From a virus (lineage: Duplodnaviria; Caudoviricetes), in the IMG/VR virus record IMGVR_UViG_3300035701_009376, positions 1 through 63,986 of that record: a stretch of DNA of 63,986 nt, one strand, 5' to 3'. Numbering within the stretch: the stretch's first letter is position 1; the number at the start of each line of letters is the position of its first letter. A program made the position numbers and the translations under genes. Below are positions 7,332 through 63,986 of the stretch, piece by piece. The notes beneath the pieces are model-generated. The model made no database searches. It worked only from the letters and a program-made list of their open reading frames with translations, and was not told the origin of the DNA.

Positions 7332-7355
7332 CCCTTTTCATCGAGAGGAAAACCC

Positions 7356-7961: not shown

Positions 7962-7978
7962 CGACACTCCCTCGCCAC

Positions 7979-8033
7979 GAGTCGGGCGGGGTTTCGCAAG
8001 AAGCCCCGCTCGGCTCTTCTTTCGCCTCTTCTC
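7979..8033 (+). terminator. Intrinsic terminator
   Basis: GAGTCGGGCGGGGTTTC-GCAA-GAAGCCCCGCTCGGCTC, then a T/C-rich tail. Confidence 0.7.
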
Positions 8034-8047
8034 TGTGAGGAATCACG

Positions 8048-9025
8048 ATGGCCTACGAACGATTTGCAAACGGCGGACTTTCTTCGCTGGATGCGGGGAT
8101 CGACAACGACGATCTCAGCCTGACGGTGAAGTCGGCTGTCGGATTCCCCACTGGCGGCAACTTCCGCATCATCATCGACAGCGAGATCATGCTGGTCACG
8201 AATGTTCAGGGCAAGACCTTCACGGTCTCGCGGGCGCAGGAGGGGACCAGCGCTGCCAGCCACGACGCCGATGCCGCTGTCTTCCACATCCTGACGGCCG
8301 GGAGCCTGGCCCAGCGGGACATCGACCAATTTGCCACCGGCGCGATGGCCGACCGTGATACGGCCGGGCAGGCGGGTCGGCTCTATCTGCCGAACGAGGG
8401 CCTGGTGGCCCAGGACAACGGCTCCCTGTGGGACATGCTGCCCCTGAACCGCCTGACGCCCCCGGCCAGCGCCGACTTTAGCTGGGTCAACCAGGGTGGC
8501 GCGACGGTCGCCGATACCAAGGGGACGATGGTCTTGACCACGCCGAGCACGGCGGGGACCGACAGCCTGCGCTGCCTGGTCAAGAGCGCCCCGGCCACGC
8601 CTTACGAAATCACGGTCGCCATGCTGGCCCAGAATCCACCTTACAACGGTTCCAGCGTCGTCCCGCAGTACGGCATTTGTTGGCGCGAGAGTGCCTCCGG
8701 CAAGCTGTTGACCTATGGCTGGGGCGGCACCAACTATCCGGGGTACTTCACCTATGCCCAATGGACGAACCCCACGACGCTCTCCGGCGGCCAGTTCCAG
8801 TACGGCGCGCCGATGATTGCACCGTTCTGGGTCCGCTTCTCGGACGATGGCACCAACCGCTACGTCAAGATTTCCAGCGACGGATTCAACTTCGCGCCCG
8901 TCCAACCAGGGCAGGGGCGCACCGTGTTTCTTACGGCCGATCAAGTCGGCGTGTTCGCCAACAGTTGGAAAGCCGCCAACGGCATCCAGCGCGTTGTTTC
9001 CTTCCTGCATTGGAGGCAAGCATAA
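8048..9025 (+). CDS. Tail fibre / receptor-binding-like protein, paralogue 1
   Basis: Shares N-terminal (GNFRIxxDxEI, V.R..EGT.A..H), WVNQG and SxDG motifs with the next two genes. Confidence 0.6.
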   Translation: MAYERFANGGLSSLDAGIDNDDLSLTVKSAVGFPTGGNFRIIIDSEIMLVTNVQGKTFTVSRAQEGTSAASHDADAAVFHILTAGSLAQRDIDQFATGAMADRDTAGQAGRLYLPNEGLVAQDNGSLWDMLPLNRLTPPASADFSWVNQGGATVADTKGTMVLTTPSTAGTDSLRCLVKSAPATPYEITVAMLAQNPPYNGSSVVPQYGICWRESASGKLLTYGWGGTNYPGYFTYAQWTNPTTLSGGQFQYGAPMIAPFWVRFSDDGTNRYVKISSDGFNFAPVQPGQGRTVFLTADQVGVFANSWKAANGIQRVVSFLHWRQA

Positions 9026-11009: not shown

Positions 11010-14000
11010 ATGGCGCAGACCGGCCAGCTAGGCACTGTTGACTCCCTGCTGGCGAACGTCCAACTGGCGTTCACGGCCGCCAACCCTGCGCCGCCCTCGA
11101 TTGCGACCGAGAGCGGCATGTTGGGCGGGCAATTGGGAGACGTGATGCTCGCCCTTGGCGGGGAGGTTGGTCCCTTGACCTTCAACCTCTCGGCCGAGAG
11201 CGTGCTGGCGCTTGCGCAGACGGCGGACCCGGCCCCGACCTTCGTGGCCCACCCCTCGCCGCACTGGGCCTTGGGCGGCCACGACTCCCAACTGGGGGCG
11301 ACGGAGCCGGCCTTCACGGGCGAGGCCCCTGCCGATCCGACGATTACCACCCAGACTGGCCGGCTCGGCTGGCAACTGGGCGAGACCGCCCCTGGACTGA
11401 CCGGGGTGGTCGGGCCGCACGTCATTTGCATGACGGCCGAGAGCGTGCTGGCGATCGCGCAAGCGGCCGATCCGGCACCGACCTTCGTGGCCCACGTCAG
11501 CCCGCGTTGGGCCTTGGGCGGGCGGGATTCCGGCCTGGGCGGCGTGGAACTGGCCTTCAGCGGCGCACCCATCTCCCGGCCGCTTACGGGCAGCCAGACC
11601 GGTAAGCTGGGTACGGTCGATTCGCTCTTGGGCGGGATGCGGCTGGCCCTCGGCCTGCAAGAGGGCGATGTCAGTAGCATCGAGGTGTCGGCCGAGAGCG
11701 CCTTGTCGCTGACAAGCGCTGCGTCGGCGGGCATCGCGCGGGAGCGTGCCGCTTCCAGCACGCTCGTCTTGACGGCCACGGCTGCGCGCAACAATTTGCT
11801 CACTGGCAGCAGTGAATCGGTCCTCGCTCTGACGAGTGCGGCGGATTGTGCGGCCGTGCGAACGGTCGCCGCCGAGAATACCCTGGAATTGACCGGTGCG
11901 GCCGGGCGCAACAATCCGGCGAGCGTCAGCGCTGAGTCGGCGATCAATGCCGAGGAATCGGCGGATTGTGCGGCCGTGCGGCCATTGACGGCCGAGAACA
12001 CGCTGGAGTTGACCAGCGAAGCGGCTGGGGTCGCCGTCCATCTGGTCTCGGCGGAATCCGTGGTGAGCCTGGATGCCGCTGGGTCGGTCGTGTCGGTGCG
12101 GACCCTCGCGGCCGGGAATACTCTGTCGCTGGCGACCGAGGCCGACCGGAACAATCTGCCGAACCGCTCGGCCGAATCGGTTCTCAGTCTGGACTCGGAA
12201 AGCGACGTTGCGGCCGTGCGCTTGGTGTCGGCCGAGAGTGCCCTGGACCTGTCGGTTGCGGCCGGTCGCAACAATCGGTTGTCGGCCGCCGCCGAGTCCG
12301 CGATCAGTGCCTCCGCAGCAGCCGGCTTCACGGCCGTGCGGACACTGGCCGCCGCCAGCACGTTGGGGCTGACGAGCAAGGCCGAGTTCGGTACGCGGAC
12401 GGTCTTTGCGGAGTCCTCGCTAAGCCTGGAAGCGACGGCCGAGTGTGCGGTCGTGCGGGTGATCTCGGCCAAGAATACCCTGGACCTGACGGCCACGGTC
12501 GGGCGCAACAATCTTCTCACGGCCGGTGCCGAGTCCACGCTGGTCCTGTCGGCGGCGGCCGGGCGCAATAATCTGCTCTCTGGCATCGGCGAATCCATCC
12601 TTTCCTTGGACACCGCTGCGGAAGCGGCGGCCATGCGGTCGTTGTCGGCCGAGAGCGTCCTTGCTCTGGACGCGGGGGCCGGGCGCAACAGCCTCTTGGA
12701 GGCGAGTGCCGAATCCACGCTCAGCCTGGTGACGACGGCCGGCGGCATGACCGTGCGGCCGGCGTCGGCCGAGACCACGCTGGAGTTGACCGGCGAAGCC
12801 GAAGGTGTCGTGGTTCGTTCGTCGTCCGCCGAATCCACCTTGACCCTGGAATCGGCGGCCGATGTCCAGGCCACGTTGTTCGTGTCGGCGGCGTCGGCCT
12901 TGAGCCTGACGACGGCCGCCACGCACAATAACCGATTTGTCGTTTCGGCCGGGTCCACGCTTAGTCTCACGTCGGCGGCAGCGGTCGGCCGACCGCTGCA
13001 AGCAGAGGCAGCCAGCGAACTGGAATTGACGGACGAGGCGGCCTGCACGCATAAGGTCGGGCATCGCCGCGAGTGCTGGGATTTCCTTCCGGTGTGGCAT
13101 GAGGCGTCCGTGTCCGTGGTGCGGGCCTTGGCCGCAGAGAGCGCCATCGCGTTGGTGCATACCGAGCACACGGCCCGGCCGTGGTACGTCTCGGCTGAGA
13201 CGCCGGTGCAGATTTCCACGCCGGAATATGACCCGGAGGTGGACGATATTGTCTGGCGGCTGGAAGGCTTGCAGGACGTGGCGAGTGCGGCCCGGCCGCT
13301 GACGGCCGCCGCCCAACACTCGATCCCTTTGCATCAAACCGCCTCGGCGGTGCGCGTCAAGCCGACAGCCATCGACGTGTCGGCGGAAAGCGTCCTGGAA
13401 CTTCTGGGCGAGGTCTGCACCAATCAGACCGGCAAGGCCGGGGATTGGCTGGTCCTGCGGCAGGAGGCGGCCGTGGACCGGTGCAAGCTGGTCAAATCGG
13501 CCCTGAATCTGTCGCAAGAAGCGGCCGTGATTGTGAGCGTCCCGCGCGGGGCGGCCTCGGCACTTCGCCTGCGCCAGGCCGCCACCTACAGCATCGTTTC
13601 GCGCGGCGTTCTGCAACGGTACAAGCCGTTCGTCGGCGAAGGACCGGAGGGTGCCCCGACGCCGCCTTCGGTCACGATTGGACCGCCCGAGCACGTCGCC
13701 TTGCCGTTCCAGTTGTTCTACCCGGCCGAGGCCGTCGTGACCGATTTCGTGCAACTGCGGGCACCGAACCTCGGCAATAAGGATCGTCTGGGCTTCAACC
13801 GCATCCTGCGGGAGACCCGTGGCGGCACGCTGATCGTCTTCGCCGACCCGATCTGGCCGAAGATTCAGACCCTCGTGCTCACGTTCTCCGGCCTGCGGAG
13901 CGTCCAGACCCAGCAGTTGCTCACCTTCCTGGAAACGCACTTGGGCGAGGAAATCGGACTGATCGACTGGGAAGGGCGGGCCTGGAAGGGCATCGTCACC

Positions 14001-23668: not shown

Positions 23669-23758
23669 TAGATACCTATAAAAGACCCCCAAATCCCTTT
23701 GATTTCCCAGAAATGCTTGGGAAAAAAGGGGGATTTGGGGGTCTTTTATAGGTGTCTA
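23669..23758. repeat. Long AT-rich inverted repeat at the divergence point (candidate origin or operator)
   Basis: 28-bp arms at 23669-23696 and 23731-23758 with one mismatch, plus inner pairing. Confidence 0.85.
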
Positions 23759-23778
23759 AGTTCGACGCGGATGCACCG

Positions 23779-24741
23779 ATGCCCGAGAAACCAGCCGACG
23801 AGTTCCGTCCGATCCCCTTGGCCGAGATCATCGAGCCGTGGGTAATCCTGCGGATCGTCAATCGGGAATCCGTGGACTACCTGGAACTGCGCGACTCCAT
23901 CGCTCACCAGGGCCTCCTCAATTCCATCTGCGTGCGACCGTCGCTGCGAAGGCCGGGCTACTACGAAGTGGTGGATGGCCTCTATCGGTACACGGCCGCA
24001 GTGGAATTACGGTTGCCGGCCGTGCCCTGCATCGTCAAGCACAATCTCTCGGATGAAGACGTGTTGGCGATCCAGATTCAGGCCAATGCGCTGCGGCCCG
24101 AGACGACAGTGATCGAGTACGCCCGGCAGATCAAGCGGATCGTGGATGCCATTGCAGCCCGCGCGGGAAGGGATGCCACGTTGGCTGAGGTAAGCAACCT
24201 GATCCATAAGAACCCAGACTGGATTCGCCGGCAACTCGATCTGTTGAGCCTGCGGGCGGACATCCAGAAGGCCGTCGAGCGTGGTGAGATACCGCTGAAG
24301 TCAGCCTACGTGCTTGCCAAGCTGCCGCGCGTCCGTCAGGTCGAGTTCATCGCCCTGGCGAAGACGACCCCGGCGCGAGACTTCGCCCCGCTGGCGGCCC
24401 GACTGGTCCGGCAGATTCAAGAGGATGCCCGGCGAGGAAAGTTGCACGACTACTGCCGGGACTTCGAGCCGGTGCCGTACTTGCGGCCCTTGAAGGAGGT
24501 GCTCACTGAGTACCGCGAGCATCACCTGGGCGGTTTGACGGTGGTGAAGGGAGAGAGCAAGACGCCAGTGGACGGCTGGTACTTGGCCCTGCAATGGGCC
24601 TTGCATCTGGACGAGGAAAGCATCCGCGAACAACGAGAGAAAGCCTTAGCGCGAATTCAAGCCGCTGCATTGGAACGGAGGGCAGAGCCATGTGATGAAA
24701 TCGAGACGAGCACCGAGGACCTGAACGACAACGACGAGTAA
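23779..24741 (+). CDS. ParB/Srx N-terminal domain protein with HTH
   Basis: ELRDSIAHQGLLNSICVR..YEVVDGLYRYTA; ANALR. Confidence 0.8.
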   Translation: MPEKPADEFRPIPLAEIIEPWVILRIVNRESVDYLELRDSIAHQGLLNSICVRPSLRRPGYYEVVDGLYRYTAAVELRLPAVPCIVKHNLSDEDVLAIQIQANALRPETTVIEYARQIKRIVDAIAARAGRDATLAEVSNLIHKNPDWIRRQLDLLSLRADIQKAVERGEIPLKSAYVLAKLPRVRQVEFIALAKTTPARDFAPLAARLVRQIQEDARRGKLHDYCRDFEPVPYLRPLKEVLTEYREHHLGGLTVVKGESKTPVDGWYLALQWALHLDEESIREQREKALARIQAAALERRAEPCDEIETSTEDLNDNDE

Positions 24742-26432: not shown

Positions 26433-28052
26433 ATGCAACCCTATTTCACGCAAGACAAGCTGACCCTCTACTGCGGCGATTTGCGGCAAGTGCTGCCGAC
26501 CCTGCCAGAGAACAGCGTGGACTTTGTGGCGACGGACCCACCCTATGGTTTCAGCTTCATGGAGAAGGATTGGGACCACGAGGTTCCCGGCCCCGAGTTC
26601 TGGCGTGTCATCGGTCGCGTGTGCAAGCCCGGTGCGCTGCTGTTGGCTTTCGGCGGCACGCGGACCTATCACCGGTTGGTCTGCGCGATCGAGGATGCCG
26701 GGTGGGAGATTCGGGACTGCCTGATGTGGCTTCAGGGCCAGGGTTTCCCGAAAGCCGCCGACGTAGGCAAGATGATCGACAAGGCGAAGGGAGCCAAGCG
26801 CGAAGTCGTGGGCACGAAGGTCGGCTTGCCCGGCTACTCGCTGGCCGACAACGGCCGCACCAACGACATCTACGGCGATCTCCATAATCCCGAGGCCGAG
26901 TGCGCCATCACGGTTCCGGCTACGCCCGAGGCCGCCAAATGGACCGGCTGGGCCAACGCTCTGAAGCCCTGCTGGGAGCCCATAACCCTGGCGATGAAGC
27001 CGATGGACGGCACGATTGCTCACAACGCCCTGACCTGGGGCGTGGCGGGCATGAACATCGACGCTTGCCGCATCGGTGACAACCCCGGCTACAAGTACAA
27101 CGCCGACCGTAACGGCACGACCTTCCACGGCAAGCAGGGCGAGCGGATCAAGCAATCGGCCGAGAAGAAGGGCACTCAGTACATCGAGTCTACGAAGGGC
27201 CGTTGGCCGGGGAACCTGCTGCTGGACGAAGAGGCTGCCCAGCTTCTCGATGCCCAGACCGGGACGCTGAAAAGCGGCACCGGAGTCGTGCGGACGAAAG
27301 CCGGGGACGGCTACCACGGCGGCATGGGCAAGGCCGGCGATGCCCAAGTGGCCTATGGCGACTCCGGCGGTGCCAGTCGGTTTTTCTACACGGCTAAAGC
27401 GACCACAAGAGAACGCAATGACGGCTGTGAGAAGGTGGTGACATGGGAAGGCGTGGACCTAAGCCGCGAGACGGAAGATACGCTCCGACACGCAAGGGCT
27501 ATATCCGCTATCGGCATGGACTGTCTGGCCGCTATCGAATGGAACACGATCTTGTGTGGGAGCAGCACCGGGGGCCAATCCCGGACGGATATTGTGTTCA
27601 TCATGTCAACTTTGACAAGACTGATAACCGAATTGAGAACCTTCAACTTCTCACCTTCCTCGAACACAAACGCCTCCATTCTGGCTGCTACAAAGACGCT
27701 GTTGGCGACTGGATCAAACCTTGCCGCCGCTGCGGACGACATCGACCGATTTCGGAGTTCTACAAGCGTCGAAACGGCGTCTCTCCTTGGTGCCCTCAGT
27801 GCTGTGTTGCGAGTGCTGTTGCAAATAAGCGCAAGAGGACATCGCGGCAATCTACATCCATGCGTTAAACCCGTGAAGCTGATGGAGTATCTGCTGACGC
27901 TGCTCTCCACACCGGACGGCGGGGTGATTCTCGATCCTTTCGCCGGAAGCGGCTCGACCCTCCTGGCAGCCCAACGCCTCGACCGGCGCTGCATCGGTGT
28001 GGAGTTGATCGAACACAACTGCGAGATCATCAAGGCCCGTCTTCAGGGCTGA
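26433..28052 (+). CDS. DNA methyltransferase (N6A/N4C, beta-type order) with internal insertion
   Basis: TDPPY, ASRFFY, HPCVKP, ILDPFAGSGST motifs. Confidence 0.9.
   Translation: MQPYFTQDKLTLYCGDLRQVLPTLPENSVDFVATDPPYGFSFMEKDWDHEVPGPEFWRVIGRVCKPGALLLAFGGTRTYHRLVCAIEDAGWEIRDCLMWLQGQGFPKAADVGKMIDKAKGAKREVVGTKVGLPGYSLADNGRTNDIYGDLHNPEAECAITVPATPEAAKWTGWANALKPCWEPITLAMKPMDGTIAHNALTWGVAGMNIDACRIGDNPGYKYNADRNGTTFHGKQGERIKQSAEKKGTQYIESTKGRWPGNLLLDEEAAQLLDAQTGTLKSGTGVVRTKAGDGYHGGMGKAGDAQVAYGDSGGASRFFYTAKATTRERNDGCEKVVTWEGVDLSRETEDTLRHARAISAIGMDCLAAIEWNTILCGSSTGGQSRTDIVFIMSTLTRLITELRTFNFSPSSNTNASILAATKTLLATGSNLAAAADDIDRFRSSTSVETASLLGALSAVLRVLLQISARGHRGNLHPCVKPVKLMEYLLTLLSTPDGGVILDPFAGSGSTLLAAQRLDRRCIGVELIEHNCEIIKARLQG
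27443..27868 (+). CDS. HNH endonuclease nested in an alternate frame of the MTase
   Basis: EHDLVWEQHRGPIPDGYCVHHVNFDKTDNRIENLQLL..H plus CxxC...CxxC; AAGGTGGT RBS. Confidence 0.8.
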   Translation: MGRRGPKPRDGRYAPTRKGYIRYRHGLSGRYRMEHDLVWEQHRGPIPDGYCVHHVNFDKTDNRIENLQLLTFLEHKRLHSGCYKDAVGDWIKPCRRCGRHRPISEFYKRRNGVSPWCPQCCVASAVANKRKRTSRQSTSMR

Positions 28053-34612: not shown

Positions 34613-35430
34613 GCTACAGCTTGCACCTTGGAGAGACATCTATGCCGACCTACTGCGTAAGTGACCTGCATCTGTGCGACCGCGGCCCGCGCGACAACTT
34701 CTGTTACGGGGACCGGGAAGAGCGATTTTACCGCTTCTTGGACTTGGTGGAGAGCAATCACGGTCGGCTGCTGATCCTCGGCGACCTGTTCGATTGGTGG
34801 CAAGTCCCCGTGGGCGCGGTGATCGTGGCCTACCGCCCGCTCTTGGATCGGCTAGCCGGCATGGGGGCAACGTGGATCGTCGGCAATCACGACAACGCCT
34901 TGGCACCCCTGATCGGCACTGAATTGATGCCCGATCATCCCTTGCTCAGGACGGCCTGCCACCCGTTCGAGGAAATCATCGGCGGCCGAAGGATCGCCTA
35001 CCTCCACGGCCACGAGGCCGACCCCTACTGCTGTGACCTGAATCCCGGCACCGGAGAGATCACGGCGATCATCAGCGGGATGCTGGAGGACCGCAACAAG
35101 GGGCCGTTCCACAATCACCATGCCGTGGAAGACGAGTTCGTCGGCACGTTGGAAGGGGCCTTGACTCTCTGGCGGAGACTGACGTTCCAGCACGGCCGCC
35201 AGGAGGAGATGGTCGCTGGCGTCGAGAAGTACCGCCAGAAGCAGAGGGCCGCTGTGGTGGTCTACGGCCACACGCACGAGCCGGGCCACATCGGCGATTA
35301 CCACTTCAACACCGGTTGCTGGGCGCGGCGGCACGACACGTTCGTCTCCATCAGCGACGGCGGCCAGGGTTCCGTGTGGGAATGGCTGCCGGACCAGGGG
35401 CCGGTCCCCTTTGACGTGAAATTGAGATGA
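34609..35430 (+). CDS. Metallophosphoesterase (LpxH-like)
   Basis: SDLH, GDLFD, GNHD, HGH, GHTH, NTGCW motifs. Confidence 0.85.
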   Translation: MSYSLHLGETSMPTYCVSDLHLCDRGPRDNFCYGDREERFYRFLDLVESNHGRLLILGDLFDWWQVPVGAVIVAYRPLLDRLAGMGATWIVGNHDNALAPLIGTELMPDHPLLRTACHPFEEIIGGRRIAYLHGHEADPYCCDLNPGTGEITAIISGMLEDRNKGPFHNHHAVEDEFVGTLEGALTLWRRLTFQHGRQEEMVAGVEKYRQKQRAAVVVYGHTHEPGHIGDYHFNTGCWARRHDTFVSISDGGQGSVWEWLPDQGPVPFDVKLR

Positions 35431-36290
35431 ACCTGCCGGAGTTGGAACAGTACAAGGCGTACTCGATTCCGGTCACGGCCATCTATTATGACGCCGCCTT
35501 CAACTGCCGGGGTGAGTTCACGCTGCAATCCGTCAAGGAACTGGCCGACAGCATCGCCCAGGCGGGCCGGCTGATCTGTCCGGTCGCTGTCCAGCCGTGG
35601 GCCGAGGCCAAGGGTTTCGAGTACCGGCTGATCGTTGGGCACCGCCGCTTCAAGGCCGTGACCACCTTCCTGAAATGGACGGCGATACCTGCCTATATCT
35701 GCGAGGGCCTAAGTGACCACAAGGCCCGCATGTTGAACTTCGTGGAGAACTTGCAGCGGAAGAGCCTGAATGTCTTGGAAGAGGCTCGTGCCATCCAGAA
35801 CCTTTATCCCGATGGTGCGCCTTTGCGACAGGCAGCCGAGGAACTGAAGCAGCCGACACGATGGGTCCATATCCGTGTGCGCCTGCTGAAGATGCCGGAG
35901 GCAATCCAGCAAAAGGCTGCCGCCGGTGTACTGTCTCAAGCGAATCTGGAAACGCTTGCGGGCATTGAGAAGCCCGACGAACAGATCAAGGCCGCCGAGG
36001 AGATTGCCGAAGCACGGCAGCGCGGCCGAGGCAAGTTCCTGCCCGGCTTGGACAGAACGTATAAACGCCGCCGGGGCGTCCGTCCCCGCGAGGAAATCAA
36101 CCGCATGATCGAGCGGATGCTCGGGGCCGGAATCGGCGGATTGCCGCCTCGGGTTGCGGCCTGGTGTGCGGGCCAGATCGCCGACGAGGAATTGTTGAAA
36201 GAAATCGAAGAAGTCACTCTCGAAACCGCCGGAGAATGCGTTGTCTCTGATAGGGAGAGATTTGATGGACACACCAGCCGCTCCAGTTGA
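35427..36290 (+). CDS. Second ParB-like protein
   Basis: ELADSI, YRLIVGHRRFKA, ENLQRKSLN motifs. Confidence 0.85.
   Translation: MNLPELEQYKAYSIPVTAIYYDAAFNCRGEFTLQSVKELADSIAQAGRLICPVAVQPWAEAKGFEYRLIVGHRRFKAVTTFLKWTAIPAYICEGLSDHKARMLNFVENLQRKSLNVLEEARAIQNLYPDGAPLRQAAEELKQPTRWVHIRVRLLKMPEAIQQKAAAGVLSQANLETLAGIEKPDEQIKAAEEIAEARQRGRGKFLPGLDRTYKRRRGVRPREEINRMIERMLGAGIGGLPPRVAAWCAGQIADEELLKEIEEVTLETAGECVVSDRERFDGHTSRSS
36217..36254 (+). promoter_or_regulatory. Phage promoter motif copy 2
   Basis: CTCTCG AAACCGCCGGAGAATG CGTTGT CTCTGATAGG before ATG 36265. Confidence 0.7.
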
Positions 36291-36663
36291 ACCGGGAATC
36301 GACGTTCGGAAGCTGAAGCCAGAGACGGTGATTCTCTTGGAGGCGGAACCCTACCTCTATGAGATTCGCGTCATGTACCCGGCACACGGCATCGTGGAGA
36401 TCAGTTCCAGCGACCCGAATCTCCGCGTTGCGACCGTGGGCCAATTGCTTCAGAGCGTCCGCTGGTCGAGTCCCGGTGCGCCGATCCCCGCCTGGATCGG
36501 CAGAGGTCTCGCCCTGGAAATCCGGTTTCGCAATGGTGTCTATCGCACTCAACCGGTGACGGCAGCCAGCGTCACTGGGAAACGCGACGACGGCAGCCAT
36601 TGGTCTTACGACGTTTTCGAGACTTCCGGCGTGCGCGCGGAATACCCGGCGCTGAACCCATAA
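36265..36663 (+). CDS. Hypothetical protein
   Basis: GGGAGAG RBS; 132 aa. Confidence 0.6.
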   Translation: MDTPAAPVEPGIDVRKLKPETVILLEAEPYLYEIRVMYPAHGIVEISSSDPNLRVATVGQLLQSVRWSSPGAPIPAWIGRGLALEIRFRNGVYRTQPVTAASVTGKRDDGSHWSYDVFETSGVRAEYPALNP

Positions 36664-36776
36664 CCGCATGGCTGGTGACTGGGATCGGTAAAGCCTGACC
36701 GGTAATGGTATCTGCCGCCGTGGCTGGCGGGGAACCATGCGGAAGCCGGAAGTCCCGTTCAAGGTGGAATCACGCT

Positions 36777-39437
36777 ATGCCCGACAAGCCGCCGAAACTC
36801 TACCTCGATACCGAGACTTGTGGGCTGCATAGCATGATGGTGCTGTTGCAGTATGCCGTGGAAGACGGCCCCATTGCTCTGTACGAGGTCTGGCGGCGGC
36901 CGATCCGTGAGACGCTGGCGCTGATCGAGTGGATATGCCAGCACACAGTCGTCGGCTTCAACTTGTCCTTCGACTGGTTCCATGTTGTCAAGGTTTACAC
37001 CATCTTTCGCCTCTGCGACCCGGACTGGATTCCCGAAGAGCATATCGACGAGATCGCCATGCTGGAACCGCAGGGGCAAGATGGCCCGTGCGTCAAGCCG
37101 GCGGCGGTCCTGGACCTGATGCTCCACAGCCGCAAAGGCCCCTACCAATCGCTGATGGCCCGCGAGGATGTCAGGATCAAGCGGGTTCCCACGGCTCTTG
37201 CCTACGCCCTGGCCCGCGAGTTAGAGGCCAGAGTCCAATTCGACAACATCTACTTCGCCAAGTCGGCCGACCCGGAAGCGCCCAAGTGGCAGGTCTTCGA
37301 CCGTCACGACTCCTTCGGCGATCTGGATACCGAGTTCAAGGATGTTGTCTTGAAGTTCAATCCGGCGGGCGGGTTGAAGTTCCTTGCCGAGCACGCTCTG
37401 AAGCTCAAGCCCAAGTATCACTACGCCGATGTAGAGCCGCCCCCAGTGTGGCGGCCCTGCGAGTTGGGCTATGCACCCACGGCCTTGGCCGTGTCAAGTC
37501 CTGACAAGGGCTGGGCGATTGAGACGGACGACGGCGAAGGCAACGGGAAGAAGGTCACGAAGTACGCTTGGCCCGGCGTGATTCGCAAGTTCATCGACCA
37601 TTGGGCAACCCGCCAGGACGCCCGCGACTACGCCAATGACGACATCGTTTATACGCGGGCGCTGGACAAGCATTTTGGATGCCCGGAGCCGGGTGACAAT
37701 GACTCTACGCTGACCTGCATGGTGGCGGCCGTCCGTTGGCACGGGTTCACAATTAACCGTGAAGGCATCAGCGGCCTGCGGGCGAAGGCCCAGGCTGTCA
37801 TGGCGGCCAGCCCAGTCAACATCCACAAGCCGAGTGAGGTTCGGGCCTACATTACTGCCGTGATGAACGACACGGAGAAACTGATCCTTGAAGAGTCCAC
37901 GAAGAAGGCCAACCTTGAAGCGATCAGCAAGTGGGGCATCGGTAAGATGTGCCCGACGTGCAAGGGCAAGGGCTACCTTGGGGAAGAGAAGACGAATATC
38001 TGCCCTGATTGCAAAGGCGTCTGCTTTGCTGGTGAACCGGAACCGTGCGGTGAGTGCGAGGGGACTGTTCCGTCGCAGACGCTTACGGCTTTCGGACTGG
38101 ATCGTGGGGCTAGTGTTGACACGGTCCACGCCACCTATCGGCATCTGGCGAAGACGCATCATCCCGACCACGGCGGAAATGCTGAAGAGTTCAAGCGGGT
38201 CCAGGAAGCCTACGAGGCAATGATAAACCGGCCGCAGTGTCATCGCTGCGGTGGTACGGGTTTCCTGAAGGTCGGCTGGCATCCGGCGGCCGTTCGCGCG
38301 AAGGAAATCCTTGCCGTCAAGTTTGCTGCCAAGGAAATCGAGCTATACGACAAACTGCTGTTGTCCGGCAAGTTCCACGCCAGCTTCGTCGTGATTGGTG
38401 CCCTCTCGTCCCGCATGGCTGGGGCAGACGGCCTCAATGCCCAAGGCATCAAGCACACGAAAGAAGTCCGCCAGATGTTCCCCTTGGCCTGGGAAGGGTA
38501 TCTGCTCTGCGGCGGCGACTTCAGTTCCTTCGAGGTGACAATTGCCGATGCCGTGTGCAACGACGAAGCCCTGCGCGCTGAACTGATTGCGGGCCGGAAG
38601 ATTCATGCCCTGTTTGGCATGGCGATCTTCCCCGGCACGACCTATGAGGAGGTCAAGTCGAGCGACGGCAGTACGACCAACGATATGTACACCAAGGGCA
38701 AGCAAGGGTTCTTCGGCACGATGCTCTACGGCGGCGACCACAGCACCCTGGTCAACCGCCTGGGGATCAGCGAAGAGGTCGCCAAGACGGCTATCGAGAA
38801 CTTCGGCAGCCGGTTCGTGGGCGTCAAGCGGTGGCGCAAGCGGGTTGCTGACTCGTTCTGTTCCATGACCCAACCGGCCGGCATCGGCACGAAGGTGGTC
38901 TGGAAAGAGCCGGCCGACTATGCCGAAACGATGCTGGGCTTCCGCCGCTACTTCACCCTGGAAAACCGCATCGCCCGCGCGATCTTCGACTTGGCCCGCA
39001 ACACTCCGAAGCACTGGAAGGACTGCAAGGTCAAGGTGGTCCGCCGCGACCGAGTGCAGACAGCCGGCGGTGCCGTCTCGTCAGCTCTCTATGGGGCGGC
39101 CTTCTCGATGCAGGCAGCCAACATGCGGGCGGCGGCGAACCATGAAATCCAGTCGCCGGGGGCCGAAATCACTAAGCACGTCCAGCGAAAGATTTGGGAC
39201 TTGCAGCCTGTCGGCGTGAACGAATGGCACGTCGCCCCCATGAACATCCACGACGAGATCATGTGCGTCACCCGGCCCGATGCGGTTCAGAGCGTGGCAC
39301 AGGTGGTCCGGGATTCCGTGGAGCACTTCCGCCCTTACGTGCCGCTGATCGGCATGGACTGGAACGAGGAAATGGCGAACTGGGCCGAGAAGAAGAGCGG
39401 CACGATCAAGATCAGAGCACCAGAGATGATGAAGTGA
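36777..39437 (+). CDS. polA: Family A DNA polymerase with 3'-5' exonuclease and a DnaJ-like insertion
   Basis: Exo motifs DTE, FNLSFD, YANDD; polymerase motifs DFSSFE, KQGFFGTMLYG, IHDE. Confidence 0.9.
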   Translation: MPDKPPKLYLDTETCGLHSMMVLLQYAVEDGPIALYEVWRRPIRETLALIEWICQHTVVGFNLSFDWFHVVKVYTIFRLCDPDWIPEEHIDEIAMLEPQGQDGPCVKPAAVLDLMLHSRKGPYQSLMAREDVRIKRVPTALAYALARELEARVQFDNIYFAKSADPEAPKWQVFDRHDSFGDLDTEFKDVVLKFNPAGGLKFLAEHALKLKPKYHYADVEPPPVWRPCELGYAPTALAVSSPDKGWAIETDDGEGNGKKVTKYAWPGVIRKFIDHWATRQDARDYANDDIVYTRALDKHFGCPEPGDNDSTLTCMVAAVRWHGFTINREGISGLRAKAQAVMAASPVNIHKPSEVRAYITAVMNDTEKLILEESTKKANLEAISKWGIGKMCPTCKGKGYLGEEKTNICPDCKGVCFAGEPEPCGECEGTVPSQTLTAFGLDRGASVDTVHATYRHLAKTHHPDHGGNAEEFKRVQEAYEAMINRPQCHRCGGTGFLKVGWHPAAVRAKEILAVKFAAKEIELYDKLLLSGKFHASFVVIGALSSRMAGADGLNAQGIKHTKEVRQMFPLAWEGYLLCGGDFSSFEVTIADAVCNDEALRAELIAGRKIHALFGMAIFPGTTYEEVKSSDGSTTNDMYTKGKQGFFGTMLYGGDHSTLVNRLGISEEVAKTAIENFGSRFVGVKRWRKRVADSFCSMTQPAGIGTKVVWKEPADYAETMLGFRRYFTLENRIARAIFDLARNTPKHWKDCKVKVVRRDRVQTAGGAVSSALYGAAFSMQAANMRAAANHEIQSPGAEITKHVQRKIWDLQPVGVNEWHVAPMNIHDEIMCVTRPDAVQSVAQVVRDSVEHFRPYVPLIGMDWNEEMANWAEKKSGTIKIRAPEMMK

Positions 39438-50032: not shown

Positions 50033-50679
50033 GCTACACCCGAAAGCAGATTGCCGAGGCCCTGGACCTGGCCGTTCTGAGGCCGACCGCCACGCACGCC
50101 GACATCGTTCGGGCGGCGCACAAAGTCAAGACTGAGAGCATTCGCTCGCTCTGTGTGGCCCCGGTCAACGTCGGCATAGCGCGCCTGTACGCCGAAGACA
50201 TCGCGGCCGTCGTCGGCTTCCCGCACGGCAACACCCTGCCGGCCGTCAAGGTGCTGGAAGCCAGCCTGGCCGTCAGCCACGGGGCGACCGAGCTGGACGT
50301 AGTGGTCAACTATGGCCACTTTCTGGCCGGCAAGCCGCAGACGGTCAAGGAGGAGTTGACCCTGTTGGTCAACCTCTTCCGGCCCATGCCCGTCGTCGTC
50401 AAGGCCATTCTGGAAACGTCCTACTACAACCCGGACCAGATTCGCGATGCCTGCAAGCTGTGCGTCGATTGCGGCGTGGGGTTCGTGAAGACTTCCACCG
50501 GGTTCGGCTCCGGTGGGGCGACGGAGGAAGCGGTCAGAATCATGGTCGCTGCCGTGCGCGGCAGCGGCGTGGGAGTGAAGGCCAGCGGTGGCATCAAGAC
50601 CTATGCCGACGCCGCCCGCTACCTGGACCTGGGCTGCACCCGTCTTGGCTCGTCCGTCTTCGAGGAGTTGCTGCCATGA
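50029..50679 (+). CDS. deoC: Deoxyribose-phosphate aldolase
   Basis: VGFPHG, ELDVV, KAILET, FVKTSTGF, VKASGGI, RLGSS motifs. Confidence 0.92.
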   Translation: MSYTRKQIAEALDLAVLRPTATHADIVRAAHKVKTESIRSLCVAPVNVGIARLYAEDIAAVVGFPHGNTLPAVKVLEASLAVSHGATELDVVVNYGHFLAGKPQTVKEELTLLVNLFRPMPVVVKAILETSYYNPDQIRDACKLCVDCGVGFVKTSTGFGSGGATEEAVRIMVAAVRGSGVGVKASGGIKTYADAARYLDLGCTRLGSSVFEELLP

Positions 50680-51719
50680 ATCGCCTCTTCTACAACCGCG
50701 TCTACTTATCTGGCCCCATCGACAATGCCAAGGACTTTGGCGTCGGCTGGCGGCAAATGGTCCGCGAGCGCCTGGCCGATTTGGACTTGATCTTCCTGGA
50801 CCCATGCAAGAAGCCGTTGCAACTGGGGTTCGCCTGTGAAGACTTGGAGAACCACAGACGCCGCTTAGCCTTGAAACGCATCGGCGACTTCGAGACGATT
50901 TCCCGCGAGATGCGACTGATTCGTTGCATCGACCTTAGACTGGCAGACCTCTGCGACTTTGCCATCACGCATCTCGATCTCAACATCTACTCCACGGGGA
51001 CGCATGAGGAAGTCACCACCCTGAACCGGCGGAAGGTGCCGATCCTCGTTCATGTCGAGCAAGGCAAGGAGAACCTGCCGGACTGGTATTTAGGTGCGTT
51101 GCCGCATCAACACGTCTTTGGCGAGTGGGACGATCTTTTCGCTTACGTCCGGCACGTCGCCCACGATCCGCCACCCATCGACACCTTCAACCGCTGGCGT
51201 TTTCTGGACTACGGACTGCTTTATGGGATGAATACGATCCCGTTGACACAAGGAAAGTGTGCGACCATCAGCCCGGAAGACTACCGCCACCTGATGCAAT
51301 GGAGTTGGCACGCCGCCAAGAAGGGCCGGCAGACCATCACGTACTACGCAGAGCGTGGCGTGAACGGCAAGGCTGGGCGTCAGCACGTTGGGATGCACCA
51401 GCAGGTCGTCAAGCGTATGGGGATGGCCGTGCCGCCTGGTTACACCATCGACCATATCAACAGTGACCCGCTCGACAATCGCCGCGAGAACCTGCGCATC
51501 GTGACGGAAAGCCAGAACCAATGGAACCGGCGGCGAGGCGGTGACAACCGCACCGGAGTCAAAGGTGTGTGCTACGACGAGGCCAACAAAACCTACAAAG
51601 CGGCTGTCTGGAAGGGCAACAAGCCGGTGTGGCAGAAGCACTTCAAGACCCTCAGTGCCGCGACAAAGGCCATTGAAAAGGCCCGCAAAGAGTTGCACGG
51701 GGACTGCGCTCGCAACTAG
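50676..51719 (+). CDS. Nucleoside 2-deoxyribosyltransferase-like protein fused to an HNH-AP2 endonuclease (from ATG 51228)
   Basis: VYLSGPID..WR, DL, STGTHEE; then IPLTQGK, IDHINSDPLDNRRENLR, TGVKGV. Confidence 0.8.
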   Translation: MNRLFYNRVYLSGPIDNAKDFGVGWRQMVRERLADLDLIFLDPCKKPLQLGFACEDLENHRRRLALKRIGDFETISREMRLIRCIDLRLADLCDFAITHLDLNIYSTGTHEEVTTLNRRKVPILVHVEQGKENLPDWYLGALPHQHVFGEWDDLFAYVRHVAHDPPPIDTFNRWRFLDYGLLYGMNTIPLTQGKCATISPEDYRHLMQWSWHAAKKGRQTITYYAERGVNGKAGRQHVGMHQQVVKRMGMAVPPGYTIDHINSDPLDNRRENLRIVTESQNQWNRRRGGDNRTGVKGVCYDEANKTYKAAVWKGNKPVWQKHFKTLSAATKAIEKARKELHGDCARN

Positions 51720-54671: not shown

Positions 54672-55370
54672 ATGACGACCACGCAAGTCAAGCAACGTCG
54701 AACACCCGTCCGCCGGACGATCTCGCAGCGATCCGAACTAATCAACGATTTCCATACCTGGGGCGTGAACCCGGACACGCGCGAGATCGTGCTAATGAGC
54801 AGCCCGGACAACATCGAAGACGGCATCGACTGGACGTGCGCTAACACGTTCATCAAGAACCTGCTGCTCTTGAACATGATGAACCACACGCCGATCCTCG
54901 TGCATCAATGCACCTGTGGCGGCGAGTGGAACTATGGCATCGCCATCTATGATGCCATCCTCGCCAGCCCCTCGCCGGTCGTTCTGGTCGCCCACGCCCA
55001 CGCGCGAAGCATGTCGAGCATCATTCCGCAAGCGGCGAAACGTCGGGTCATTATGCCCAACGCCGACTTCATGGTCCACTTCGGCATGGCTGGCTACGAA
55101 GGTGATTCTCGCAGTTTCGTTGCGGAAGGCAAGCAGACGGATGTGATGGACGGCCGGATGCTGGACATCTACACGGCGAAATGCGTCCGGGGCAACTTCT
55201 TCCGCCGCAACAAATACACCAGGGATCGCGTGCGGGAGTACCTGCGCCAGCGGATGAACGAGATACGCGAATGGTACATGCCGGCCGCCGAGGCGGTGGA
55301 CAAGGGATTCATGGACGGCGTATTCGGGACGCCTCGCTTCAAGAGCTACGACGAGATACGGCAACTATGA
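54672..55370 (+). CDS. clpP: ClpP-like serine protease
   Basis: GGEWNYGIAIYDAI, ARSMSSII, PNADFMVH, EAVDKGFMD motifs. Confidence 0.8.
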   Translation: MTTTQVKQRRTPVRRTISQRSELINDFHTWGVNPDTREIVLMSSPDNIEDGIDWTCANTFIKNLLLLNMMNHTPILVHQCTCGGEWNYGIAIYDAILASPSPVVLVAHAHARSMSSIIPQAAKRRVIMPNADFMVHFGMAGYEGDSRSFVAEGKQTDVMDGRMLDIYTAKCVRGNFFRRNKYTRDRVREYLRQRMNEIREWYMPAAEAVDKGFMDGVFGTPRFKSYDEIRQL

Positions 55371-56638
55371 CGCACATTCTGGTGAACGCCGACTGCCTCG
55401 ATTACCTCAACACGTCGCAGCAGTGGACCACACTGTTCGCCGACCCGCCGGACAACATCGGCCTGGGCTACCAGACCTACAAGGATAAGTTGCCCGACGA
55501 GAAGTACATCGACATGCTCCAGACCTGGTTGCACTTGTTCATCTACCGCGCGAAGACGGTCTGGTTCAGCTACAACGCGCGATGGACTTTCGAGGTCGGC
55601 CGCATCGTCTCCGGGATGCTTAGCCGGATTCGCGGCCTGGAAGCGAAGCCTTGCGTCCAGACCTTCACGTTCGGTCAGCATTGCCACCACGATCTGGGCA
55701 ACAACCACCGGCCGCTCTTGCGATTGCGCTGGCACGACGCCCCATTGAGGCCCGACGCAATCCGCGTTGCGTCATGGCGGCAGGAGAACGGCGATAAGCG
55801 TGCGGACCCGCGCGGCCGGGTGCCCGGCGACGTGGCTCAGTGTGAGCGGTACGAACGAGACACATTACCCCTACCAAACTGGACCGCCGACGATATTGAG
55901 CGGTTTCTGTCCAAGATCAACCGTGCCGGCGAGACGGACTGTTGGGAATGGACAGCAGGAAAACGCAGCGGATACGGACGCTTCCGCATTGGCGACAACC
56001 TTTACGTCGCCACACGACTCATGTGGCGACTGACGCACGGAACCGACCCGATCGGTCAACTGGTGTTGCACACCTGTGACAACCCCGGATGCTGCAACCC
56101 TGCGCACTTGTTTATCGGCTCCGATGCCGATAATGGCCGTGACAAGGAGGCAAAGGGCCGCGGCAAACATCCCATCGGCGAGCACAACGGATTAGCAAAG
56201 CTGAGCGATGAAGATGTAATCCGAATCTTCCAATCCACGGACACCAATGTCGCTTTAGCCCGGCAGTTTGGCGTTAGCGACGTAGCGATTAGCTCGATTC
56301 GCAACGGCTGTACCTGGCAGCACGTCACCAGCCGGATCGGACTCAGCGATGTCTTCAACTACCCTCGCGTGACCGGCAATAGCAAGCAGCGCCGCTCCTG
56401 GCATCCCACTCAGCTCAACGAGGGGCTGGTCGAGCGCTGCATCAAGTTCACGACGCCTGAAGGCGAGACAGTTCTGGACCCATTCGGCGGCACAGGAACG
56501 ACGCTTCGCGTCTGCCGCCGCCTGGGCTACCCTTGCACCCTCATCGAGATCGACGCCAGCTATTGCGCCGAGATCGCCAGGGAACACGGGATGAGGCGGT
56601 CGGAGTACATTCACCGCGCCTTATGGGAGATCGAATGA
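55367..56638 (+). CDS. DNA methyltransferase (beta-type) with an in-frame HNH insertion (about 55835-56353)
   Basis: ADPPD, HPTQL, VLDPFGGTGTT flank CWEW..VLHTCDNPGCCNPAHL..DN and an HTH. Confidence 0.85.
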   Translation: MTHILVNADCLDYLNTSQQWTTLFADPPDNIGLGYQTYKDKLPDEKYIDMLQTWLHLFIYRAKTVWFSYNARWTFEVGRIVSGMLSRIRGLEAKPCVQTFTFGQHCHHDLGNNHRPLLRLRWHDAPLRPDAIRVASWRQENGDKRADPRGRVPGDVAQCERYERDTLPLPNWTADDIERFLSKINRAGETDCWEWTAGKRSGYGRFRIGDNLYVATRLMWRLTHGTDPIGQLVLHTCDNPGCCNPAHLFIGSDADNGRDKEAKGRGKHPIGEHNGLAKLSDEDVIRIFQSTDTNVALARQFGVSDVAISSIRNGCTWQHVTSRIGLSDVFNYPRVTGNSKQRRSWHPTQLNEGLVERCIKFTTPEGETVLDPFGGTGTTLRVCRRLGYPCTLIEIDASYCAEIAREHGMRRSEYIHRALWEIE

Positions 56639-60315: not shown

Positions 60316-60384
60316 TACTGAGTGCGTGGTGTGATTCCTTTCGGTTCCGCTGGCCCGCCCGATGGTCACGGGCGGGCCAGCCTT

Positions 60385-60459
60385 GGCCCCGTCATTTCTA
60401 ACCGGTGAGGATACAGGCCCTTCAAGCCTGGGATGCGGGTTCGAGTCCCGCCGGGGCTA
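60385..60459 (+). tRNA. tRNA-Glu(UUC), no encoded CCA
   Basis: Acceptor GGCCCCG/CGGGGCT; anticodon arm CAGGC-CCTTCAA-GCCTG; T arm GCGGG-TTCGAGT-CCCGC. Confidence 0.8.
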
Positions 60460-60472
60460 TTTGGAGAACTTT

Positions 60473-62329: not shown

Positions 62330-62761
62330 ATGACAGTCGATCTGGTCCGAACCATCATTCTTCGCAAGATGGACGAGTGCGACGCGGCTGCTGACCGCCC
62401 CGATCTACCGTGTCCTGATCCAGAGCCAAATGCCCGCCGAGGGTCGGAGATCGTGCAGGACGTTGGCAATCGCATGGCCCGGCTTGGCTTTGCTGAACTC
62501 TATGCGTTGAGCCGGGAGTATGTCCCATTCGCTCACCCGGATGAGGCCAAGGGGTATCTCTCCCAATGCTTGGCCGCCCTGCCGGAACCGCCCGCCATCG
62601 AGTCTCCCTACCTGGATTCCGGGAAGGCCGCGGCATACCTCGGCATCGACGTGAAACAGCTTTACCGGCAGGTCGAGTTGGGCAAGCTCAAGCCTCTCCG
62701 CGGTCCTCGAAACTCGTACCGCTTCACGCAAACGATGTTGGACGACTACCTTGGCAAGTGA
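62330..62761 (+). CDS. Excisionase-like HTH protein
   Basis: YLDSGKAAAYLGIDVKQLYR..YRFTQTMLD. Confidence 0.75.
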   Translation: MTVDLVRTIILRKMDECDAAADRPDLPCPDPEPNARRGSEIVQDVGNRMARLGFAELYALSREYVPFAHPDEAKGYLSQCLAALPEPPAIESPYLDSGKAAAYLGIDVKQLYRQVELGKLKPLRGPRNSYRFTQTMLDDYLGK

Positions 62762-63986
62762 AATCTGTGAACTATTCGACGGCCGTCGCATCCGCTTCTC
62801 TCTGAATAAGCGGGACGGTCGTCCCGCATACTTCGTCTACTTCCGTCTGCCAGACGGACGGCGAGCGGAGACATCGACGAAGGAAACGAATCGGCGAAGG
62901 GCGCAGGATGCGGCGATCGCCATCATTCAGGAAGCCTACGCTCCGCCGCCTGCCCCGCCACCCGAACCGGATTCAACGGATTCGGTCCCGTGGGATGATG
63001 CCCTGAAACTCGCGCTTCGGCACATGCGGGCGAACAATTTGCGGGCGACCACGATTCAGCAATACGAATTAGCTGTCAAGACGCTCCGCAAGGTGGTCCC
63101 GGACTCCAAGGGGCCGGACGACATTACGCCTGCGTTGGCCGAGCACTTCAAGTTGGTGCGTTTGGAGAAGGGCCGGAAACCCCGAACCGTCGAGAACGAC
63201 ATCAACAACCTGAGCATCGTCTACGGCCATTGGTTTCGCGACACCCTGAAGATCATCGACAGTAACCCGTTCGCCGACGTGGAACCGCCCAGATACGATA
63301 AAGCGCCCGCGCGCTACATCGCGGAGGATGAACAGCAAGCGTTGTTCAATTGGCTGAAGGAGCGATGGCAGTGGCGATTGCCCCTAGTTTTTCTCGAAGT
63401 GAAGGCCGCCATTGGCTGCCGGATTGGCGAGCTGTCATCGGCGTTGACCGTGAACCTGCGCGAGGGCCGGCTCTATTTCCCCGCCGACGCCACCAAGGGA
63501 AGAGAGGAGCGGGCTTGCCTCCTCCCGAAAACTCTGTACGACGAGTTGCGGGCGAAGGCTGGGCCGACCTACGTCTTCGAGCGGTTCAGCGAAGAGCTAC
63601 GGGAAGTCCATCGACGCAAAGGGAACCATCAACCGGCAAACGCCGTGCGAACCTTCACCCCCGCCCGGCTGAAACGATGGATGCAGGATGAGGCTAAGAA
63701 CTACTTCGACAGGACCAATGCCCGCAAGTTCAAGCTTCACAACTTCCGGGGGACGGCCATGAGCAAGGCCCGCGTCGCGGGCGTCTCTACCGACGATGCG
63801 GCCATCGCCTTCGATTGCACCGTCGCCACGATGCAGCAGCACTACCTGGCGTTCGACAAAGCCCGCGTAGCGGATGATGTCTTCTCGCGGATTCAGAACG
63901 GCCGTGTTGGGCGTGCCCACCAGAATGGCGAAGGCGATGGGCGCGCCCAACAGGACAACCAACGTGCTCAGCGAGCCCAACTCTAG
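62751..63986 (+). CDS. int: Tyrosine recombinase / integrase
   Basis: Arm-binding-like N-terminus; GCRIGEL (R), TKG (K), HNFR (HxxR), QHY (Y). Confidence 0.9.
   Translation: MASEICELFDGRRIRFSLNKRDGRPAYFVYFRLPDGRRAETSTKETNRRRAQDAAIAIIQEAYAPPPAPPPEPDSTDSVPWDDALKLALRHMRANNLRATTIQQYELAVKTLRKVVPDSKGPDDITPALAEHFKLVRLEKGRKPRTVENDINNLSIVYGHWFRDTLKIIDSNPFADVEPPRYDKAPARYIAEDEQQALFNWLKERWQWRLPLVFLEVKAAIGCRIGELSSALTVNLREGRLYFPADATKGREERACLLPKTLYDELRAKAGPTYVFERFSEELREVHRRKGNHQPANAVRTFTPARLKRWMQDEAKNYFDRTNARKFKLHNFRGTAMSKARVAGVSTDDAAIAFDCTVATMQQHYLAFDKARVADDVFSRIQNGRVGRAHQNGEGDGRAQQDNQRAQRAQL

Follow-up and report, generated by a model that had tools for sequence, protein, structure and literature searches.

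The stretch of DNA analysed here, called the window throughout, is a complete IMG/VR record of the provirus class (IMGVR_UViG_3300035701_009376; 63,986 bp; CheckV completeness 61%). It encodes a family A DNA polymerase of 886 amino acids plus a stop codon (36777..39437, plus strand), in which a 58-residue J-domain (residues 430-487; 38064..38237, plus strand) is inserted in frame between two knuckles of a zinc ribbon, at a site consistent with the thumb. We propose that this built-in J-domain brings DnaK to the replicase or to the replisome, a proposal that we regard as evenly poised between right and wrong. An earlier note on this DNA, made from the letters alone, had described a polymerase with a DnaJ zinc finger and an HPD J-domain in its thumb. 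As set out below, the J-domain holds up and the zinc finger turns out to have a different history.

The J-domain was recognised by the Pfam DnaJ profile (PF00226) at 32.5 bits in the whole protein and at 36.1 bits in the 127-residue stretch that combines ribbon and J-domain, against a cut-off of 27.8, the match spanning profile positions 7-54 of 63. A profile made from the inserts matched 49 distinct solved J-domain sequences, among them the DnaJ of 5nro and the J-domain of SV40 large T (1gh6). The HPD tripeptide (residues 462-464; 38160..38168, plus strand) is placed in the loop between helices II and III. With PF00226 above its cut-off, the HPD J-domain that the earlier note had read in the polymerase is real, and the translation places the HPD and the four CxxCxG motifs at the positions given there. 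Of the three Pfam domains that the note had named for a scan, DnaJ and DNA_pol_A scored above cut-off and DnaJ_CXXCXGXG below it.

The borders of the insertion were defined by comparison with relatives that have no J-domain. The closest of them (at most 85% identity, 831 amino acids) read '...CG-x-C-x-G-DDPQ-C-x-RCGGTG...' at this site, and the 58 residues in the window stand where these proteins have about two loop residues. DNA alignment of the window with the J-less relative L006 stops at 38072 and with the J-less L020 at 38057, and both restart at 38232; alignment with the contig L002, a second carrier, is continuous across the J-domain. The insert is therefore shorter than the roughly 115 residues first counted: the segment actually inserted has 58 (38064-38237), and the remainder is the zinc ribbon of the J-less relatives. 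An intein or homing element was ruled out, given the short inserted segment and the lack of such domains, as the 127-residue stretch gave, besides DnaJ, only zinc-ribbon-type Pfam matches below cut-off.

Since the window is a metagenomic provirus record and the G+C content at third codon positions (GC3) of the insert is below that of its flanks, a chimeric assembly of a J-protein gene and a polymerase gene had to be considered. Contigs from run X1, which is possibly the source sample, cover 37700-38418 with 0 differences. Two further sediment runs, each from another sample and study, gave identical contigs over 37700-38265 (X2) and 38048-38394 (X3), again with 0 differences. Judged by a 31-letter rule, the left junction is bridged by X1 and X2 and the right junction by X1 and X3, so that X1 bridges both and each of the other two runs bridges one. 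Moreover, two other phage contigs, L002 (about 79% nucleotide identity) and the more distant L145, hold a diverged J-domain in frame at the same codon position. A chimera, against which the earlier note had cautioned, is thus ruled out for all practical purposes by the public-run contigs and these other carriers. In a fourth run, X4, no contig piece spans the insert; the single short overlap, 38134-38168 at the HPD region, has unrelated flanks on both sides and presumably belongs to a J-domain gene of another organism.

The four zinc knuckles were located at 37950-37973 (CPTCKGKG), 38001-38024 (CPDCKGVC), 38046..38063 (CGECEG) and 38238..38261 (CHRCGGTG), all on the plus strand. Knuckles 3 and 4 form the two halves of the core ribbon, which is conserved across the family; the outer pair, knuckles 1 and 2 (37950..38024), is confined to closer relatives. 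The four cysteines of the core ribbon align in 73 of the 103 sequences of our family alignment (A2). Among 82 fetched proteins anchored by the flanking motifs, the site has four CxxC motifs in 31 and two in 39, and a J-domain is absent from all 81 besides the window's own protein. In A2 the loop between knuckles 3 and 4 is mostly 4-7 residues long and reaches 46 residues in J-less members, with unrelated inserts. Because J-less relatives of up to 85% identity have the ribbon, it is not part of a DnaJ unit of J-domain plus zinc finger. Judged from these alignments, the zinc ribbon is a feature of the polymerase family that is older than the J-domain, and the J-domain is a later insertion in the knuckle loop. 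The label of a DnaJ zinc finger given to the four repeats must accordingly be dropped: they predate the J-domain in the family and fail the Pfam cut-off, DnaJ_CXXCXGXG (PF00684) giving 12.5 and 19.6 bits against 32.7. Joint acquisition of a DnaJ zinc finger and a J-domain was ruled out on the same two grounds. Nor is the architecture that of a type I Hsp40, with PF00684 below cut-off, no match to PF01556 and the J-domain lying inside the ribbon.

The polymerase itself lies in an open frame at 36705..39437 (plus strand); the database gene call (P0003) and all relatives begin at M25, that is at 36777. Its membership of family A is indicated by a PF00476 (DNA_pol_A) match of 74.1 bits, the cut-off being 34.3, and by conserved catalytic residues. 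The palm and fingers core, corresponding to profile positions 104-359, occupies 38364..39326 (plus strand). D581, K642 and H825 are invariant in A2 and D826, E827, Y651 and G653 nearly so, and we take these residues to belong to motifs A, B and C. The best solved relative of the family profile is a DNA polymerase I (7r0k_A, E 1.4e-28). The family comprises 2055 proteins at E <= 0.001 among 8000 scored candidates, with 1806 representatives at 50% identity. A second hot spot for insertions lies in its fingers region and contains additional zinc modules of the CxxCxGxG type (PF27659.1 or PF00684 in precomputed matches), the loci concerned being the relatives P0041, P0066, P0071 and P0120 and L145:1711-3849. 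A further insert of about 45 residues precedes the conserved 'RRDRVQTAGGA' block in P0008, P0010, P0031 and L022.

An AlphaFold2 model of the full-length protein, computed with alignment A2, had a mean predicted local distance difference test (pLDDT) of 94.8 and a predicted template modelling score (pTM) of 0.91. As the earlier note had supposed, the insert is predicted to fold as a J-domain, with helix I at residues 433-439 (38073-38093), helix II at 447-461 (38115-38159) and helix III at 469-483 (38181-38225), all on the plus strand, and with the HPD at 462-464 in the II-III loop. Over residues 431-490, successive blocks of ten have pLDDT values of 83, 80, 92, 93, 92 and 84. The insert is placed between short helices ending at residue 383 (helix 377-383) and a 28-residue helix at 503-530 (38283..38366, plus strand), which leads into the palm and which we take, from the architecture of Pol I, to be the returning thumb helix. 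With the family profile, the ribbon columns fall on the stretch of solved Pol I structures that immediately precedes the returning helix. In this model the site is consistent with the thumb location originally proposed.

The 127-residue segment was docked, together with ATP and two zinc ions, on residues 1-605 of a DnaK from a Thermoguttaceae metagenome-assembled genome (MAG) that carries an 82%-related prophage. The docking score was 0.66 (0.66, 0.67 and 0.64 in the individual runs), compared with 0.01 for the best of three controls, and a like complex, 5nro, is already solved. Of 80 solved complexes 58 reach the mark applied, as do 2 of 110 mismatched pairs. The runs share at least 86% of their contacts, with a partner pLDDT of at least 62. 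On the J side the predicted interface consists of helix II, HPDH and helix III; on the DnaK side it consists of residues 207-210, 373-387 (including the LLL of the interdomain linker), 412-416 and 474-475. No part of the confident interface is assigned to the zinc ribbon. We take this to be the canonical J-domain site of the solved Escherichia coli complex. Docking on a host-type DnaK at that site, the structural outcome that the earlier note had looked for, is thus predicted in the sense of likeness to a solved complex, not of binding.

Three carriers in all are known, and each keeps the HPD and has its J-domain at the same internal loop. L002 is a 69,991-bp provirus, collinear with the window, whose polymerase also has 886 amino acids and whose J-domain scores 35.1 bits with PF00226. 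L145 is a 41,293-bp contig, syntenic with the window, with a J-domain of 44.9 bits; its polymerase (L145:1711-3849) has suffered an in-frame loss of about 190 residues (approximately 572-763 of the relatives), including the motif B region. A scan of viral contigs with J-specific patterns returned 51 loci, of which two lie in polymerases, those of L145 and of L144 (a locus on the L002 contig). When the J region was used in a word-index search of proteins of 500-1593 residues, only the window's own protein was found, and a scan of metagenomes with the J pattern gave at least 80 loci, the best at 52% identity, with no polymerase among the matches listed. The J-domain is therefore an accessory of very few members and not a family trait. 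Conservation of the HPD in homologues, on which the earlier note had made its reading depend, is borne out in both other carriers. The best tree does not place the polymerases of the window and L002 as sisters, although their monophyly is not rejected (approximately unbiased (AU) test, p 0.21). The identities among the three J-domains (55, 54 and 64%) are out of step with those among the polymerases (64-93%).

Substitution patterns were compared between carriers as the ratio of nonsynonymous to synonymous rates (dN/dS), which is here a rough measure. Between the window and L002 it is 0.27 in the J-domain (58 codons, dS 1.1) and 0.085 in the rest of the gene (824 codons, dS 0.76); in the two pairs that involve L145 the J-domain gives 0.20 and 0.22 at dS 1.3-1.75. 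These values are far from neutrality and point to purifying selection on the J-domain. In 12 aligned sequences the invariant columns of the J region are Y, A, HPD, GG, F, K, A and E, which the inserts of the window and L002 keep by construction.

Concerning its origin, the profile of the inserts found small uncharacterised metagenomic proteins, P0275-P0283 (148-266 amino acids), with a C-terminal J-domain that shares 52-67% identity with the window's insert (BLASTP). In global alignments six proteins of this type and the three inserts are 48-64% identical over the whole J-domain. The likeness includes a 'P-x-x-P-Q-x-L' lead-in before helix I and a short tail after helix III, and the tail of the L002 insert still resembles the last residues of the donor-type proteins. 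The three inserts and ten donor-type proteins fall together in one clade of a J-domain tree (support 98/98), the branching inside which is not resolved; the AU test does not reject monophyly of the inserts (p 0.485). We consider P0275-P0283 the probable donor family, and the donor breakpoint that the inserts share speaks for capture having happened once.

The N-terminal region of the donor-type proteins, about 190 residues long, has no Pfam or PHROG match. Together with P0286 they make up a family with an unassigned N-terminus and a three-helix C-terminal J-domain, encoded on short metagenomic contigs. In the ESM Atlas this N-terminal region gave only low-score leads (0.77 and 0.75), the latter leading to a Planctomycetota-rich cluster. 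In 201 genomes of the host order the donor family had one full-length relative at 35% identity, the rest being generic J-domains. On a viral contig of 60 kb, the genes of a replication initiator (phrog_9474) and a DnaB-like helicase (phrog_19) at 6399-8776 are followed, 1.2 kb further downstream, by that of a related 129-residue protein with a C-terminal J-domain (L050:9980-10369, 34% identical to P0277). Relocation of a J gene conserved in the lineage was ruled out, as there is no stand-alone J-domain in the window or in the records of four J-less relatives (61-91% complete).

Base composition sets the insert apart. GC3 is 0.64 in the insert and 0.80 in the rest of the gene in the window, where 58-codon windows outside the insert average 0.797 with a standard deviation of 0.062, and 0.58 and 0.83, respectively, in L002 (insert at 11279-11464). 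GC3 is low in both inserts although dS between them exceeds 1, which may reflect foreign origin or repeated exchange with donor genes. Spread of the insert by recombination via the conserved knuckle codons, or repeated donor exchange, would explain the discordant identities, the scattered occurrence and the GC3.

The contact between a J-domain and Hsp70 is transient and coupled to ATP hydrolysis, and the ordinary mechanism of a J-domain is the local loading of DnaK onto a nearby client. Applied to the polymerase, our proposal would run as follows. A copy of the C-terminal J-domain of a small stand-alone J-protein would have been inserted in frame between two knuckles of the ribbon in the thumb region, from where it would project as a functional co-chaperone module. 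There it would contact the nucleotide-binding domain, the linker and the substrate-binding beta domain of ATP-bound host DnaK. By triggering ATP hydrolysis it would cause DnaK to clamp an unfolded or exposed segment beside the thumb. What the analysis shows is the domain, its site, its probable donor family, purifying selection on it and its predicted fold and canonical docking; stimulation of DnaK and the nature of the client are inferred. The client might be the polymerase itself, for folding, solubility or reactivation, or else a replisome partner or a loader in need of remodelling or eviction. There are precedents. Mdj1 and mitochondrial Hsp70 protect the family A polymerase Mip1 in heat stress (PMC3750215), and in lambda DnaK, DnaJ and GrpE are required to evict the P loader from DnaB (PMC12661323).

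Several observations weigh against this proposal. The fold is not the four-helix fold of a complete J-domain: helix IV is absent from the model, and of the 63 Pfam profile positions 7-54 are matched. The nearest stand-alone relatives likewise stop directly after helix III, and helix IV is the least conserved part of the J fold. The docked DnaK is that of the related prophage's host and not of this one's; the calculation covers the 127-residue segment; and the docking result, being one of likeness, may owe something to the predictor's memory of the solved DnaK-DnaJ complex 5nro. With dS of 1.1-1.75 synonymous sites are near saturation, which makes the dN/dS values rough, and the J-domain changes faster than its host gene (55% against 90% amino acid identity between window and L002). 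The J segment matched one of 270 fetched family proteins, the window's own (phmmer), and a J-domain is present in 2 of the 62 rows of the tree of close polymerase relatives. It was found in none of three MAG prophage copies with a readable insert region, and no carrier was found in 401 sampled Planctomycetota genomes, where the one long match was an ordinary J-protein. A J-domain so rare means that the polymerase works without it. Finally, the L145 polymerase has lost the motif B region and is no longer reported as DNA_pol_A by Pfam, and this J-domain probably rides on a dead polymerase. Two other explanations of the J-domain stay alive on account of its rarity, its faster evolution and the broken polymerase of L145.

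According to one of these, which we consider unlikely, the J-domain would act on host DnaK globally, for example by titration or mis-activation that alters the heat-shock response, with the polymerase as an early-expressed vehicle and no role specific to replication. Rki of phage RB43, the only characterised phage J-protein, works in this manner (PMC3486835). The donor family consists of stand-alone J-proteins, the J-domain is retained on the deleted L145 polymerase, and the window contains no other J-domain gene. Set against this is the location: in all three carriers the J-domain occupies one and the same loop inside the polymerase, not an end of the protein or a gene of its own, and the interior of an essential enzyme is a costly site for an effector that only rides along. 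The records of the four J-less relatives (61-91% complete), in turn, showed no separate J gene, so the phage lineage has no evident general need for such an effector. The other explanation, in our estimate quite unlikely, is that an insertion-tolerant knuckle loop took up a J fragment which persists, neutral or slowly decaying, without function. The hypervariability of the loop with its unrelated inserts in J-less members, the rarity of the J-domain, its faster amino acid change, its foreign-looking GC3 and the broken carrier polymerase would all fit such a passenger. A decaying fragment would hardly be expected, on the other hand, to show dN/dS of 0.20-0.27 in all three pairs at dS above 1, to be still in frame with the HPD and all invariant J-family columns kept, and to have a confidently predicted fold.

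The stronger version of what the earlier note had suggested is a processivity role, in which DnaK bound to the thumb would hold the polymerase on DNA as thioredoxin does for T7 polymerase. Contacts between J-domains and Hsp70 are weak and transient and end at hydrolysis, which makes a thioredoxin-like role mechanistically unlikely; a stable clamp would need a client segment to which DnaK binds, and many J-less relatives share the thumb ribbon without having a J-domain. The insert does lie in the thumb region, and T7-like PolAs bear a thioredoxin-binding insertion at the tip of the thumb (PMC10201439). We nevertheless rate this role as improbable. A more specific form of our proposal of DnaK recruitment combines two elements: a thumb-tip J-domain that loads DnaK on a fork partner (helicase or primase, loader, or a DNA-bound roadblock), and a J cassette that spreads by recombination through the knuckle codons. 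Such spread would account for the scattered distribution and the foreign GC3; we hold the combination to be doubtful, if worth entertaining. If the J-domain is active, it would provide a direct physical link between Hsp70 and the replicase, bearing on the role of DnaK in phage and organelle DNA replication as in the eviction of lambda P and in the Mdj1/Mip1 case, and alleles that lack the J-domain at 85% identity offer controls from nature. The codon-precise capture of a domain by a zinc-ribbon loop also illustrates a polymerase site that naturally tolerates insertions. Work on the question is limited to three carriers, one of them on a broken polymerase, in hosts that are uncultured or hard to grow.

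The genetic context is that of a phage. The window is a tailed prophage of Planctomycetota, encoding a tape-measure protein, a tail fibre, a primase-type protein, an ATP-dependent DNA ligase, an RNA ligase and several DNA methylases, as well as helicase, exonuclease and ParB-like proteins. Because close relatives of the polymerase lie within large contigs of Thermoguttaceae, Planctomycetaceae and Pirellulales MAGs, the host is a planctomycete. Among GenBank phages no close relative of the polymerase was found, the best matches having 24-26% identity over at most 40% of the protein. A tRNA-Glu gene (60384-60460), followed by an integrase-like frame (62751-63986) that runs past the window end, probably marks the attachment end of the prophage. 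The replication module contains two ParB-like genes (23752-24741 and 35427-36290), one of them a short way upstream of the polymerase and separated from it by a small frame without assignment (36241-36663). A DNA methylase gene (55181-56638, plus strand) is interrupted in the middle of its product by an HNH_3 endonuclease domain (residues 279-320), with the methylase C-terminal part at residues 386-465. Two further loci, 50460-51719 and 26433-28052, go with this observation: another open reading frame also has an HNH_3 domain, and in a third methylase the Pfam matches at the N- and C-terminal ends are separated by about 390 residues without assignment. Internal insertions seem frequent in the genes of this phage. 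As regards defence or anti-defence families, PADLOC gave no match for the insert or the donor protein and only a 13-bit PolA-type match for the polymerase, and no RNA runs were present among the 24 runs listed.

In full-text searches of the literature no polymerase with a J-domain was found, in line with the earlier note, whose author knew of no PolA of this architecture. The words 'DnaJ' and 'J-domain' are absent from the main text of two PolA surveys (PMC10201439 and PMC12926913), the supplements of which, with their domain-architecture tables, could list such a fusion. The closest parallels are therefore partial. Like the gene 5 polymerase of T7, the protein is a phage family A replicase with an insertion in the thumb region that recruits an abundant host protein, in this case by prediction. 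The T7 thioredoxin-binding domain is an insertion on the tip of the thumb that is 50 residues or longer in only about 29% of its cluster (PMC10201439), and it too is thus a patchy accessory. In the window the insertion is a zinc ribbon plus J-domain, likened to the T7 domain by thumb region only, the predicted partner is DnaK instead of thioredoxin, and binding is expected to be transient and catalytic, whereas T7 polymerase forms a stable 1:1 complex. The two polymerases have no close sequence relationship, and no T7-like phage is among the best 12 of 47 matched phage records.

Polyomavirus large T is likewise a viral replication protein with its own HPD J-domain for host Hsp70. Its loop reads HPDKGG (PMC11720896) and that of the window's insert HPDHGG, both of the short 'HPD-x-GG' type; the insert profile matches the large T J-domain (1gh6) at E 3e-5. 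The J-domain of large T is N-terminal and belongs to a helicase of a eukaryotic virus, whereas the one described here is internal, in the ribbon of a phage DNA polymerase. Phage-encoded J-domains are also known from Rki of RB43, which acts through host DnaK and stabilises sigma-32 (PMC3486835), and from the stand-alone proteins of PHROGs 9210 and 14336. The insert matches phrog_9210, whose J-domain is C-terminal as in the donor-type proteins. Rki and the PHROG proteins are separate small proteins, in contrast to a domain within an enzyme, and P0275-P0283 have an unrelated N-terminal region of about 190 residues and no polymerase. With bacterial DnaJ the polymerase shares an HPD J-domain and zinc knuckles of the CxxCxG type. 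It differs from DnaJ in having no G/F region and no C-terminal substrate-binding domains, in the order of modules, with the J-domain inside the ribbon, and in having inherited that ribbon from the polymerase family. Recruitment of a host factor by an insertion in the thumb was thus already known, as were viral replication proteins with a J-domain of their own; a polymerase with a J-domain built in was not found in print.

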